Shown: positions 2-11,962 of the stretch, piece by piece
Position numbering within the stretch: position 1 is the first letter of the stretch
How the letters are laid out: each line of letters opens with the position of its first letter
Source of the DNA: Candidatus Kaiserbacteria bacterium
GTDB taxonomy: Bacteria; Patescibacteriota; Minisyncoccia; Phycocordibacterales; JABMNX01
Length of the DNA: 33,860 nucleotides
Direction of reading: 5' to 3'
Assembly (NCBI GenBank): GCA_013204405.1
Contig: JABMNX010000033.1
Location: 1 to 33,860 of the forward strand
Notes under the pieces: generated by a model
What the model saw: only the letters and a program-made list of their open reading frames with translations
Told to the model about the DNA's origin: nothing
Databases searched by the model: none
Position numbers and translations under genes: made by a program

Positions 2-376
2 TATAGAAGTTCGTGTTACTACGAAATAAGCGCGTGGTGGAGTGCTGTGTTTAATAGAGATTATGAAAAGATAGGTGCTTTATGCGAAGAAGTTACCAAC
101 GAGGAACAACAAGAAGCGTGCTATATGGGGTTTGGTGGAGTAGCTCCTCCTTCGGCAAATTATGATGTTGATAAAACAATACACCTGTGTGAAAAAATGC
201 CAAGCTTCGATGGAGAGCTTCTGTGTCGAGCGGGGGCATCTTGGGTTTATTTTTCTATTCCAGAAAAAAGGTCACAAGCGACTCTTTTCTGTGAAGGCCT
301 CACGGAAGAGAATTCAAAGTATTGTGTACAAAAGTCAGATATTTTGGGTACTGGTGAAATTAATCTCGACATATGA
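2..376 (+). CDS. C-terminal part of a Cys-rich exported protein (5-His/Cys family paralog 1), truncated by the window start
   Basis: The frame is open back to position 2 (YRSSCYYEISAWW...). The SCY..WW..C, ACYMGFG and LCRAGA Cys spacing matches the C-termini of the downstream paralogs. Its stop overlaps the next start (ATGA, 373-376). Confidence 0.85.
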   Translation, partial: YRSSCYYEISAWWSAVFNRDYEKIGALCEEVTNEEQQEACYMGFGGVAPPSANYDVDKTIHLCEKMPSFDGELLCRAGASWVYFSIPEKRSQATLFCEGLTEENSKYCVQKSDILGTGEINLDI

Positions 377-1887
377 TACGTACAGTTCTAAAACACCCAT
401 TTTTTTATATTGTAGTTCTATTTATTATTGCTACTGGCTTAAGTACATTTGGTCACTCACTTTCTTCAGGCGGGTTTAATAAAAATCATACCCCAGAGTC
501 TTTTTCAGTTGAATTAAGGGATGGTGGTTTTTATCCATCTGAGCTTACAATTAAAGTTGGTGATAGTATTACATTTACCACAATAAGGGACAAAAACTTT
601 TGGCCAGCAAGTGACCCACATCCCACGCATGAATTCTTAGGGGGATTTGATCCTGCTAGGTCATTAGCTGCAGAAGAGGCTTGGACATATACATTTAATT
701 ATTCTGGTGTGTGGAGGTACCATGACCACCTCAATGTTTCTTTCCGGGGTAACGTAACGGTACTGGAACCATCTTCAAAGGTTTTTTTAAAAAGTACTTC
801 AAGTAAAGAAGAGTGCGATGGTCTGTGTTTTGATGAACGTATACGCGAAACTGTACGAAAAGAAGGAGTAGATGCTGCTTACGCTCTTTTCCAAGATGCG
901 TTTGTAGCAGGAACATTACCTCGAAGCTGTCATTGGACCGCTCACCAAATAGGGGAAGAAGCATACCAATTATTTAAAGATGGAAAGGAATTTCCTATAA
1001 CGGAGGCTACCTCACACTGTGGTTACGGTTTCTACCACGGGTTTTTAGAGGGGTTACTTCGTGAAAATCCAGATATTGAATATGCACTATCTTTTTGCAA
1101 GGAAGTAGAAGCACAGCTTGGTGATATGGGATTACAAAACTGTTACCATGGTATCGGACATGGGTTCACAGAAGATCCTCCGGACCCAGAGGTGTGGGGA
1201 GATTTTGAAGCGATGATTAAGCCAGGTATCAAAGTATGTGAGTTTCTTTTTGGAAAAGATTCCTTTCGCAACCTGAATTTATGTCTTACTGGTGTATTTA
1301 CTGTCCCTGCAGGATTTTCCGCCGATGGAGAATTTGGTTTATCTATTAATATTGACGACCCGTTTGCATTCTGTCGTACGCAACCGTATCGATACCACAA
1401 AGCATGTTATGGTGAGATTACCCCGAAGCTCGATGTAATACTTGATTGGGATCTTTCTGGTTTACCTAAATATCTCGATAACATAACCGACGATAAGACC
1501 AAGCGTTTAGTAGTATGGGTATTACCATCTGTGATGATGGCACGAGATATATTAAAAGATAATCATGATGACTATATAGTTGGTTGTCGTGAAAACTTTG
1601 AAGGAAGACTACAATATGTTTGCCTCGCGGGGACAGTGTTTGGTTTTTTCTCCCATGGAATACCAGGAGAAGAGTACCGTAAAGTACTTGAGTTTTGTGA
1701 ATCAGAAGCATTTCTTGGGAACGAGCGTGAGCTTTGTTATAGTGAGGCTCTGAGGCAAATGCGGGTGCAATATACACTTGAAAAAGTGATTAATATATGT
1801 GAACTTGTACCAGAGGCTTACAAGCCTCACTGTACGGAGACTTTACACACTCCACCGTATGACGACCCTTTGTTTGATAATATCTAA
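373..1887 (+). CDS. Membrane-anchored cupredoxin-like domain fused to a Cys/His-rich domain (paralog 2)
   Basis: N-terminal hydrophobic helix. Cupredoxin-like segment GFYPSELTIKVGDSITF..WPASDPHPTH..GVWRYHDHL, then CHWTAH..GFYHG..CYHGIGHG. Confidence 0.85.
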   Translation: MIRTVLKHPFFYIVVLFIIATGLSTFGHSLSSGGFNKNHTPESFSVELRDGGFYPSELTIKVGDSITFTTIRDKNFWPASDPHPTHEFLGGFDPARSLAAEEAWTYTFNYSGVWRYHDHLNVSFRGNVTVLEPSSKVFLKSTSSKEECDGLCFDERIRETVRKEGVDAAYALFQDAFVAGTLPRSCHWTAHQIGEEAYQLFKDGKEFPITEATSHCGYGFYHGFLEGLLRENPDIEYALSFCKEVEAQLGDMGLQNCYHGIGHGFTEDPPDPEVWGDFEAMIKPGIKVCEFLFGKDSFRNLNLCLTGVFTVPAGFSADGEFGLSINIDDPFAFCRTQPYRYHKACYGEITPKLDVILDWDLSGLPKYLDNITDDKTKRLVVWVLPSVMMARDILKDNHDDYIVGCRENFEGRLQYVCLAGTVFGFFSHGIPGEEYRKVLEFCESEAFLGNERELCYSEALRQMRVQYTLEKVINICELVPEAYKPHCTETLHTPPYDDPLFDNI

Positions 1888-1905
1888 GAAACCAGCACAT
1901 AACAT

Positions 1906-10727: not shown

Positions 10728-10801
10728 ATAGTATCACAGATTTGATACACACTCTGGGCATGTTTTTACCAAAATTGACGGTTTAATTATTGTGGTATTA
10801 T
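10728..10801. promoter_or_regulatory. Divergent promoter pair with extended -10 elements
   Basis: Minus strand TGATACTAT (10736-10728) is 9 nt from ATG 10718. Plus strand TGGTATTAT (10793-10801) is 9 nt from ATG 10811, with TTGACG at 10775-10780. Confidence 0.5.
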
Positions 10802-10810
10802 GCGTGTACC

Positions 10811-11962
10811 ATGAAGAATCTTAGGTTATATAGTAGAAAAATCCTGATAGGGATTTTACTATGTTGCTGTGTGATATTGTTTTTCAGTATCTTACTTTTT
10901 AGTGATAGAAATGACACTTCTGCTGATGAAGATATAGCTCATCAAGCCCAGTTTCTCTTAAAGCTCTCTGATGTTGATGCGGAGATATATTGGAGTGCGC
11001 GCATAGCAGAGGTTGGAGACAATGAAGCGTATAGGGAATTTGTAGATATTGAAACATACATGCCGGATGGTTCTGAACATAAACGAGCCCATATGTTTGG
11101 AGGAGCTCTCTATCAGCAAAGAGGAATCGATTCATTTACCGTATGTGATTCATCTTTTCATTACGGATGCTTTCATGAATTTATCGGCCGAGCTGTATTT
11201 GAGTACGGTAAAGACATACTCGAAGTAGCAAGTAGTAAATGTGTCGATGCTCTTGGTACAGAAGGAGTGTTGTGTCAGCATGGTGTTGGGCACAGCGCAT
11301 TGGCATATTATGGATATACACAAGAAGATCTTAAGCGTGCCCTAAACACATGCAGAAGTCTTGATGAAGATGGTGGTAATGATCCAATACGAGGATGTGA
11401 AGGTGGGGCATATATGGAGTTTAATATGCGGACTATGCTTGATGAAGAGGATGAAGTAAGACCATATGGTGACCAATTTTTACCATGCACGAATGTTTCG
11501 GAGAGCTATCACTTGGGATGTATATTTTGGCAAACACAGTGGTGGCAGGAAATATTTATGAGAGATAGTGCACACAAATACTCATCAAGTATATATACTC
11601 AAATGGGAGAAAATTGTAGAGAATTCACAAAAGATTCTTCGTTGCTACAAGCCTGCTTTGCAGGTATCGGTAACTTTGGTGCTGGTGGTGTTGATTATGT
11701 GATACCAAGCATTGTGAGTCTGTGTGATAGTGCTGCTGATAACCAAGAGCATAGTTTGTTTTGTCGACTGCGTGCGTTAAAGAAGACACCTGCGCAGAAG
11801 TTAGATACGCAAACACCGCTTGAAATATGTACTGGGCTTAGCGGGAATATTAAAAAATACTGCAGCGCTTTTACCCGTAACGAATCCGATACTCACTTCA
11901 CCACAGACGAGGGTGTTCGTGTTGATATGTCAGAACTTTTATACTTTAGGTCATTACGATAA
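10811..11962 (+). CDS. Membrane-anchored Cys/His-rich protein (paralog 9, subfamily B)
   Basis: TM helix; HKRAHMFG..GCFHE..CQHGVGH..GCEGGAYME..WQTQWW. ATG 10811 is preferred over TTG 10790, which overlaps the promoter. Confidence 0.85.
   Translation: MKNLRLYSRKILIGILLCCCVILFFSILLFSDRNDTSADEDIAHQAQFLLKLSDVDAEIYWSARIAEVGDNEAYREFVDIETYMPDGSEHKRAHMFGGALYQQRGIDSFTVCDSSFHYGCFHEFIGRAVFEYGKDILEVASSKCVDALGTEGVLCQHGVGHSALAYYGYTQEDLKRALNTCRSLDEDGGNDPIRGCEGGAYMEFNMRTMLDEEDEVRPYGDQFLPCTNVSESYHLGCIFWQTQWWQEIFMRDSAHKYSSSIYTQMGENCREFTKDSSLLQACFAGIGNFGAGGVDYVIPSIVSLCDSAADNQEHSLFCRLRALKKTPAQKLDTQTPLEICTGLSGNIKKYCSAFTRNESDTHFTTDEGVRVDMSELLYFRSLR

Follow-up and report, generated by a model that had tools for sequence, protein, structure and literature searches.

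Introduction

The closest described systems to the gene family analyzed here are extracytoplasmic metal proteins with a cupredoxin domain and secreted stacks of disulfide-linked helical hairpins. EfeO of E. coli (7wgu), FtrB and the Bacillus anthracis protein 4hcf are extracytoplasmic and start with a cupredoxin domain lacking the blue-copper Cys, followed in EfeO by an all-helical domain with metal ligands. The site of this helical domain is HxxE. The Sel1-like Hcp proteins of Helicobacter are secreted alpha/alpha repeats, with each helical hairpin cross-linked by one disulfide. Hemerythrin builds its site from five His plus carboxylates, and in multicopper oxidases and NirK the His on either side of the type 1 (T1) Cys extend to a catalytic copper between two domains. 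Here, we analyze 33,860 nucleotides of a Candidatus Kaiserbacteria genome (positions 1 to 33,860 of contig JABMNX010000033.1, assembly GCA_013204405.1; hereafter the window). Positions 2-11962 hold nine homologous Cys-rich genes, all on the plus strand, of which eight are complete and one is truncated at the window edge according to the list of open reading frames (ORFs). Most complete copies share a signature of five His, which likely marks a metal-binding center of some kind on packed helices.

The locus resembles each of these systems in part. An N-terminal cupredoxin domain without the blue-copper Cys on an extracytoplasmic protein recalls EfeO, FtrB and 4hcf. Like FtrB with its D118, the domain has an Asp (D120) where the Cys would be or close to it. 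The helical domain differs from EfeO in having seven disulfide-stapled hairpins and five His, and no paralog has a Peptidase_M75/imelysin match (Pfam, E ≤ 1). In the 93%-complete genome there was no match for EfeU, the FTR1-family permease partner of EfeO. The proteins also depart from the Cup-I/Cup-II systems in that their cupredoxin domain has four invariant His. Degenerate tandem repeats, with hhalign probabilities of up to 81% between blocks, are shared with Hcp. However, no Sel1 match (PF08238) appears at E ≤ 1, the Sel1 protein 6ok3 reaches a Foldseek E of 0.079 with a template modeling (TM) score of 0.16, and the spacing of the Cys differs (8-14 residues between partners). To our knowledge, Hcp proteins have no invariant five-His cluster.

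The likeness to multicopper oxidases and NirK concerns the motifs YHDH and HPTH, which align to YHCH and HGTH in domain 1 of 9cck. This alignment is weak (5.2 bits) and not significant alone. Unlike these enzymes, the proteins have no T1 site and carry HDH rather than HCH, their partner domain is helical instead of a second cupredoxin, and no Cu-oxidase domain occurs in the proteins or the genome. HxxxH motifs on packed helices are shared with hemerythrin and type-3 copper proteins, a likeness limited to ligand number and type. Hemerythrin, tyrosinase/hemocyanin, DUF3328 and BURP, the analogies drawn in the first-pass annotation, gave no Pfam match in ten proteins scanned to E ≤ 1, a range in which HMMER filters drop most matches above ~0.1. 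They are also not among the top Foldseek and VIA matches listed for the model of one paralog, which by itself excludes none of them. We regard the family as unnamed and large, with no solved relative detected, and as akin to two known kinds of protein, disulfide-stapled helical repeats and cupredoxin-plus-helical metal proteins, and not as categorically new.

Conservation of the five-histidine core

The signature HxxxH ... H ... CxHxxGH is kept in seven of the eight complete copies in the window, as the first-pass annotation of this DNA had reported. The exception is the copy at 4644-5699, the site of which is degenerate because all five His are lost. Together with three copies elsewhere, 10 of 11 complete copies in the genome keep the signature. 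The annotation had also distinguished two subfamilies, and motif membership of the seven paralogs agrees (proteins are named here by the first nucleotide of their gene). CHxxxH/xHG defines the proteins 373, 1906 and 3398, and HxxxHxFG, GCxHE, FME and QWW define the proteins 5687, 6754, 7805 and 10811. Short and cupredoxin-fused subfamilies are ~18-21% identical, and the five His are common to both. The nine proteins contain no CxxCH, and a six-frame regular-expression scan of the window shows this motif just once, in an out-of-frame ORF of 38 codons, in line with the earlier statement that these are not c-type cytochromes.

Conservation across homologues is concentrated on the same residues. 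In 106 homologues of the 6754 protein, H80, H84, H112, H147, H151, E192 and 14 Cys are invariant in every sequence. G148, G150, G188, F190, M191 and G274 are invariant as well, and D103, Q146, Y193, N194, R206, W233 and W234 are conserved in at least 90%. Against a mean column identity of 31% in this alignment, the invariance of the five His and the Cys is far beyond chance. Conservation and covariation delimit a putative metal-site segment (H80, H84, D103, H112, H147, H151 and E192) encoded at 6991-7329 on the plus strand. All 118 cupredoxin-fused homologues of the 1906 protein keep H189, H193, H224, H264 and H268 (codons at 2470-2709, plus strand, by homologue alignment) together with the Cys pairs, and E228 is conserved in at least 90% of them. 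The E192 carboxylate and the FMEYN/QWW shell belong to the short subfamily alone. In a set of 80 sources, i.e. 79 related loci plus the window, a regular expression for the five His matches 331 of the 352 family ORFs of at least 300 amino acids (aa).

Fold of the helical domain

The AlphaFold2 model of the 6754 protein is of high confidence, with a predicted local distance difference test (pLDDT) of 93.3 and a predicted TM score (pTM) of 0.87. A membrane helix is followed by 16 helices. The placement of the His on helices, as anticipated by the first-pass annotation, is seen in the DSSP assignment of this model, with H80 and H84 on helix 76-94, H112 on 109-122, and H147 and H151 on 124-157. 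E192 lies on helix 185-195. Foldseek searches of the model against the PDB returned no match at E ≤ 0.001, and the best entries were designed armadillo repeats with TM ~0.2. The best VIA match was a designed helical repeat (Z 8.3, root-mean-square deviation (rmsd) 3.8 A over 126 residues), followed by HEAT, AlkD and TPR-like proteins at Z 5-6. Such scores are in the range common for helical repeats and do not by themselves indicate a novel fold. A confident match to a known non-catalytic repeat family had been named in advance as evidence against the proposed metal site, and none was found by Pfam, Foldseek or VIA. When the 500-aa model was used for a second wide VIA search, cupredoxins took up the list of matches. 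For the helical domain, neither Pfam nor NCBIfam returned a match with any paralog, and a PDB sequence search with the 6754-family profile gave only chance-level entries (E 0.47 and 1).

The helical domain is probably built from a degenerate repeat. When eight blocks with one Cys pair each were compared by hhalign, profile-profile probabilities reached 81% for R6-R7, 60% for R3-R5, 52% for R3-R7 and 43% for R5-R6. The His lie 1-7 residues past the second Cys of hairpins 0-3. Couplings at 102-110, 256-269, 292-305 and 326-337 from direct coupling analysis (DCA) fit one disulfide per hairpin. Further couplings at 131-146 (z 9.7), 127-153 and 124-157 indicate a hairpin that would permit a C134-C145 disulfide. 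Nested disulfides (C102-C145 and C110-C134), as suggested by the DSSP helix 124-157, were considered and rejected. Sequential pairs are preferred because of the first four couplings and the hairpin signal at 131-146.

Structural neighbors in the ESM Atlas (TM 0.70-0.75) include unnamed clusters of Minisyncoccota and Actinomycetota. In one Actinomycetota cluster (454 aa, 71 members, TM 0.70 by query), 100% of members are annotated with Cytochrome_CBB3, and 13% of members of one Minisyncoccota cluster carry Cupredoxin_1. Both are unverified leads. The 3398 protein has a neighboring cluster in Gemmatimonadota (TM 0.72). No relation to the Lipocone/Wnt superfamily is apparent from the part of that work available to us.

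Helix contacts and the putative metal site

Covariation suggests that the His-bearing helices pack against each other. Mean-field DCA of the helical domain was run with our own script on 429 sequences, with an effective number of sequences (Meff) of 413. The strongest signal joins helices 76-94 and 109-122 (z up to 11.7; pairs 91-121, 88-113 and 83-109), and these helices run in a parallel register in which H84 and H112 are separated by about one turn. Helix 109-122 is also coupled with 185-195 (z 6.2; 110-191), which places E192 beside H112. Additional couplings connect 143-157, the HGIGHG helix, with 96-103 (z 4.9; 98-148), with 76-94 (z 4.0; 86-143) and with 184-196 (z 4.6; 146-184). These contacts fit a single pocket lined by four helices, in which the His would converge as judged at the level of helices.

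We infer metal binding, metal identity, redox activity and domain docking from this pattern of conservation, covariation and modeling. A conserved multi-His center on packed helices that binds metal of some kind is a likely prediction. The full statement, an extracytoplasmic multi-His center with a catalytic or redox role and probably with redox-active Cu or Fe, is one that we hold to be about as probable as its negation.

The cupredoxin domain of the fused subfamily

The N-terminal domain of the fused proteins is a true cupredoxin fold, as judged from the AlphaFold2 model of the 1906 protein (pLDDT 93.0, pTM 0.88). Residues 45-133 superimpose on 5fc9 with a VIA Z of 13.8 and an rmsd of 1.5 A over 86 residues. 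Other VIA scores are 12.5-13.0 for plastocyanins, 12.6 for 9cck, 10.1 for the Cu-bound Cupredoxin_1 protein 4hcf, 9.9 for FtrB (8vuk) and 9.6 for the N-domain of EfeO. The domain also has a Foldseek match at E 3.8e-5 (TMt 0.81). Scores against Pfam Cupredoxin_1 (PF13473, cut-off 27 bits) are 27.5 bits for the 1906 protein and 18 bits for the 373 protein (E 0.0029), compared to 28.1 and 21.4 bits in a six-frame search. Proteins with the fused architecture form a conserved group, with 302 hits in the homology search. From these, 116 database homologues were aligned with the two window copies, and the proteins are ~445-512 aa in length. Most family members do not contain any cupredoxin domain.

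The ligands of the domain differ from those of blue-copper proteins. H85, H88, H119 and H121 are invariant in all 118 sequences, D120 is conserved in at least 90%, and the domain has no invariant Cys (codons of H85, H88, H119, D120 and H121 at 2158-2268, plus strand, by homologue alignment). The copper ligands of amicyanin are His53, Cys92, His95 and Met98. Profile and single-sequence alignments with amicyanin and 9cck show H85 as kept, with the Cys replaced by D120, the His by A123 and the Met by F126. The domain is not a blue-copper electron carrier because the Cys, the second His and the Met ligands are replaced by Asp, Ala and Phe, respectively. The proposal that the cupredoxin fusions favor copper has to be qualified accordingly: the fold is genuine, and of the blue-copper ligands only the first His is kept. 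FtrB, which lacks the HHC ligands, requires D118 for Cu2+ binding and oxidizes Fe2+ in vitro according to the portion of the report available to us (PMC11966278).

The data on docking of the cupredoxin domain onto the His helices are no more than suggestive. In DCA between the domains, the highest-ranking pairs, P124-A229 and T127-V271, connect the loop after HDH to residues adjoining H224 and H268. Two of the top three pairs fall in the His windows, where 2.1% of pairs are expected (binomial P ~0.001, at a Meff of 149 and with windows picked post hoc). A prediction of the two-domain complex passed weakly, with a score of 0.54 compared to 0.19 for the best of three controls. The mark for such predictions is reached by 58 of 80 solved complexes and by 2 of 110 mismatched pairs, and scores of ≤ 0.60 comprise just 7 of the 80 solved complexes and both passing mismatches. 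The runs share at least 67% of contacts with a partner pLDDT of at least 87, and the prediction used our own alignment plus Zn, unlike the calibration.

Proposed mechanism and points against it

We suggest that family members are single-pass proteins anchored at the N-terminus, with the bulk facing outward. In the predicted fold of the ectodomain, about eight degenerate helical hairpins, each 35-40 residues long and closed by one disulfide, are stacked on each other, with seven invariant Cys pairs. The five invariant His (HxxxH, H and HxxxH) lie just past the second Cys of the first four hairpins. They are accompanied by a conserved carboxylate, which is E228 in the fused proteins and E192, together with D103, in the short ones. 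The side chains of the His and carboxylates might line one pocket between four packed helices and hold one or two transition-metal ions. Such a pocket would be a catalytic or metal-processing center and not purely structural. Proteins of the 500-aa subfamily carry in front a Cys-less cupredoxin, whose invariant His4/Asp site resembles the Cu(II)-binding, Fe(II)-oxidizing domains of FtrB and the EfeO N-terminus and whose ligand loop probably docks onto the His helices. The outcome could be Cu and/or Fe redox chemistry at the cell surface, either an oxidase- or ferroxidase-like reaction or a redox-linked capture of metal.

Several observations weigh against the proposed mechanism. The carboxylate is unlike between the subfamilies, with E192 in FMEYN facing GVFN plus E228. 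The DCA contacts are at helix level and from our own script, in which invariant columns cannot be scored and which gives no His-His distances. Residues 124-157 form a single 34-residue helix by DSSP and an antiparallel hairpin by DCA. A weak pass of the kind obtained for the two-domain complex is more often wrong than right unless the docking is likely beforehand. Separate cupredoxin-like neighbors of 170 aa, found in 15 of the 80 sources, have a Cys pair and no His site, so that the beta-sandwich may sometimes be a mere module. The copy number, which reaches 10 per locus, and the giant proteins, in which the domain is repeated 6-10 times, would suit a surface coat or adhesin equally well. Finally, Cu-oxidase_3, the HMA copper-chaperone/ATPase domain and the FTR1/EfeU permease (PF03239) have no match in the 93%-complete genome. 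The FTR1 search matched control genomes, and absence from an incomplete genome is not proof. These searches thus turned up neither a known copper enzyme or gene of copper homeostasis nor a partner of the Efe/Ftr type.

A bolder version of the redox center has a low probability. The helical domain could be a new scaffold for a multinuclear copper (or Cu/Fe) center, in which three or four outward-facing cupredoxin His (HPxH and HDH, counterparts of HPxH and HCH in multicopper oxidases) would join the five solenoid His. The resulting inter-domain cluster of eight or nine His would serve a surface oxidase or ferroxidase of a new kind. If true, an oxidase with a multinuclear center would be widespread in part of Patescibacteria and, with cytochrome c replacing the cupredoxin, in Actinomycetota.

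Alternative functions

The five His and the Asp/Glu might instead hold a two- or three-metal center of the phosphoesterase type. A zinc (or Mn) hydrolase of this kind would cut host lipids, nucleic acids or glycans for scavenging by an auxotrophic epibiont, and we regard it as unlikely. The site would be analogous, not homologous, to that of the all-helical Zn-dependent phospholipase C and P1 nuclease. The residues around the core of the short subfamily (D103, E192, Y193, N194, R206, Q232, W233 and W234, all invariant or nearly so) could be read as the polar and aromatic shell of a substrate pocket, yet this second shell is absent from the fused subfamily. The extracytoplasmic position would suit scavenging, as would the two sulfatase genes in the window and rare fusions to carbohydrate enzymes (P0122 with GH3; P0121 with a PMT_2/DUF2079 membrane glycosyltransferase). 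However, no hydrolase family was matched in Pfam or NCBIfam, and a hydrolase leaves the conserved His4/Asp cupredoxin fusion unexplained, as well as the unverified cytochrome-c-fused structural neighbors.

Metal capture or buffering without turnover is similarly unlikely. The pocket would then be a high-affinity extracellular site for Cu, Zn, Ni or Fe, of the EfeO/P19 type or a sink, and additional copies would raise capacity. This could explain the high copy number and the multi-copy giant proteins. The order of domains, cupredoxin before helical metal-binding domain, is that of EfeO, with a Foldseek match to 7wgu at E 3.6e-4 over 414 columns and a VIA Z of 9.6 for the cupredoxin part. Over the whole protein, however, EfeO is matched with a TM of just 0.16/0.22 and an rmsd of 23.6 A, and EfeO- or imelysin-type chains are not among the structural matches listed for the helical domain alone. 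The missing Peptidase_M75 match and the missing FTR1 permease in the 93%-complete genome likewise argue against an EfeO-like role.

A non-catalytic surface coat or adhesin, in which a disulfide-stapled solenoid would bind host surfaces and the His would hold a structural ion or act as a pH switch, fits the tandem arrays in 73 of the 80 sources, the envelope-type neighbors (fiber-like G/T-rich proteins and an O-antigen-ligase/TPR-like membrane protein), the exclusive fold matches to generic solenoids (designed armadillo and helical repeats, HEAT and TPR) and the attachment role that the available part of PMC4736985 proposes for Cys-rich extracellular proteins of the Candidate Phyla Radiation (CPR), but it is improbable given that binding faces usually vary, that a dense polar cluster is invariant here (106 and 118 homologues; subfamilies of ~20% identity), and that the paralogs predate the species split (53% vs 39% identity), as fits fixed and distinct functions.

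Family size, distribution and relevance

The family is large. Among representatives of clusters at 50% identity, the profile of the 6754 protein matches 5717 at E ≤ 0.001, and 1230 of these reach E ≤ 1e-30. Named homologues are from Kaiserbacteria, Parcubacteria, Paceibacteria and other Patescibacteria. All 79 related loci, from species-representative genomes, stem from assemblies of uncultured organisms (metagenome-assembled genomes). Many are titled as Patescibacteria-type groups, and the remainder under labels that include Gammaproteobacteria, Acidimicrobiales and Nanoarchaeia. The distribution is patchy, with 12 of 301 genomes matched at E ≤ 1e-5 in an even sample of the phylum that includes this genome. 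Five listed genomes of the same order had no match in this sample, a loose first look that may miss copies. A tblastn search against plasmids gave no match.

Tandem arrays are the habit of the family. At least two copies within ~8 kb occur in 73 of the 80 sources, with up to 10 copies, and of the 1129 non-overlapping ORFs in these neighborhoods, 430 belong to the family. Copies of the short type, the 404-aa type and the cupredoxin type are found together in many arrays. The closest orthologue of the 6754 protein is 53% identical compared to 39% for paralogs in the window, hence the paralogs are older than the species split. Giant proteins contain multiple matched stretches of the domain, with 10 in P0122 (3580 aa), 9 in P0129 (2143 aa) and 6 in P0173 (1727 aa). 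P0122 additionally carries GH3 and LRV/HEAT at the C-terminus, and P0121 (812 aa) has a PMT_2/DUF2079 membrane domain N-terminal to one copy of the family domain. P0122, P0129, P0173 and P0121 are single genes or possibly merged gene calls.

Small as CPR genomes are, this one (595,433 bases in 53 contigs) devotes roughly 2% of its length to 12 copies of one unnamed family with an active-site-like invariant core. If the core is a metal center, supposedly fermentative and host-dependent bacteria would have an unrecognized surface chemistry, acting for example on O2, metals or host substrates, and bioinorganic chemistry a possible new protein scaffold. The annotation of cupredoxin genes is also concerned. 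Public names of family members include "plastocyanin" (P0306 and P0333) and "cupredoxin domain-containing protein" (P0251 and P0281). CPR models assign cupredoxin or plastocyanin genes as electron carriers to NirK, as far as the available parts of these studies go (PMC5581439, PMC12931201). Proteins of the family have neither the blue-copper Cys nor the Met and should be left out of any count of such carriers, and the genes named as NirK donors in CPR papers may include such proteins. A description of the family was not found in the literature consulted on Cys-rich, cupredoxin or copper/histidine proteins of Patescibacteria and the CPR, and supplementary family tables may contain it. One possible place is Table S2 of bioRxiv 10.1101/335083, which lists CPR-enriched families.

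Array layout and genome setting

The nine genes form a tandem array of Cys-rich paralogs, as first described, with nine ORFs matched by one profile. In a six-frame search of the whole genome, the profile built from the nine paralogs recovers all nine at E 6e-37 to 3e-130. The window is contig C30, and the same search detects three further copies, located on C4 and C29. Window GC content is 35-40%. Neighboring paralog genes overlap by 4, 11 or 13 nucleotides or are separated by 1-31 nucleotides. The row is broken by a minus-strand gene at 9132-10718, which is no paralog, and by a 75-codon minus-strand ORF at 8865-9089.

All paralogs are on the plus strand. The first (2-376) is a C-terminal fragment of 124 aa, open at the 5' end, which keeps the last Cys pairs and the WW motif and matches the profile at E 6e-37. 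The second (373-1887, 504 aa) consists of an N-terminal membrane anchor, a cupredoxin-like domain and the five-His Cys/His helical domain. The third (1906-3408, 500 aa) has the same order, with the cupredoxin fold at ~45-134 and the helical domain at ~150-500. The fourth (3398-4612, 404 aa) belongs to the CHxxxH subfamily and has kept the five His without a cupredoxin domain, and the fifth (4644-5699, 351 aa) has kept the Cys-stapled repeats. The short subfamily comprises the sixth (5687-6748, 353 aa, with the five His plus the Glu of FME), the seventh (6754-7803, 349 aa, the modeled protein), the eighth (7805-8842, 345 aa, recognized as an ORF with a profile match) and the ninth paralog (10811-11962). 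The ninth has 383 aa from the ATG at 10811, where the profile match begins, or 390 aa from a TTG at 10790.

Each of the eight complete paralogs has a single N-terminal hydrophobic segment (Kyte-Doolittle score 1.9-3.2) with K/R before it and no other such segment. The Cys-rich bulk should face outside the membrane because this lone segment is preceded by K/R. The genome encodes four DsbA-like Thioredoxin_4 genes, and VKOR has no match in the 93%-complete assembly. Anchored DsbA/MdbA-like proteins are described as CPR-enriched in the available part of bioRxiv 10.1101/335083.

Neighboring genes

Several families recur beside the arrays. These are a G/T-rich fiber-like protein of ~620 aa (19 of 80 sources), a 199-aa family (16 of 80), a 539-aa family (16 of 80) and PaaK/AMP-binding-like genes (12 of 80). 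Arrays elsewhere are often preceded by the fiber-like protein and three tandem 199-aa paralogs with a motif starting FVIDHPLDP, a module seen at loci including L005, L006, L013, L014, L041, L054, L071 and L080 and absent from the window. Members of the 539-aa family have ~440-540 aa, one N-terminal hydrophobic segment and no Pfam match. By ORFs and neighbor clustering, three stand in the window, at 9132-10718 (minus strand), 15090-16415 (plus) and 20313-21893 (minus). The first of these is the 528-aa gene interposed in the array, which has one N-terminal hydrophobic segment and no Pfam match and whose family recurs beside arrays. A third, separate cupredoxin-like ORF of the genome lies on contig C8 (244-555, minus strand), with an open frame of 148 aa and 19.1 bits for Cupredoxin_1, below the cut-off.

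Small ORFs of ~72-84 codons with an N-terminal hydrophobic segment end in FVGCGGF(F/LE). In the window, they are at 8865-9089 and 16467-16718, both on the minus strand, and ORFs of this type also occur at related loci L007 near 5257 and L018 at 15692-15913, again on the minus strand. The ORF looks protein-coding because the two window copies differ in synonymous codons and still encode the motif. The idea that these peptides are substrates of the paralogs finds no support in co-occurrence, as peptides of this type are seen in just 3 of 80 sources and adjoin PaaK-like and 539-aa genes rather than the arrays. At L018, the peptide heads a minus-strand run followed by a 272-aa family and a PaaK-like gene. 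Of the two window copies, one lies after the 528-aa gene, and the second is arranged divergently to a 272-aa and PaaK-like gene pair. The peptide loci may represent a peptide-modification module.

Many PaaK/AMP-binding-like ORFs and a related 272-305-aa family occupy 11980-13944, 16730-20274 and 25123-28574 of the window. The AMP-binding matches are weak (E 8e-7 to 5e-3), all below the Pfam cut-off. Two overlapping ORFs, 12822-13574 and 13549-13944, may be one gene split by a frameshift. Convergent sulfatase genes lie at 22084-23529 (plus strand) and 23544-25250 (minus strand), with Pfam Sulfatase matches at E 1e-36 and 3e-40. The product of the plus-strand gene at 31316-33277 spans the membrane several times and ends in a TPR region (TPR_19, E 0.0014). 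Its family is found near the arrays in 7 of 80 sources, and it appears O-antigen-ligase-like by eye only.

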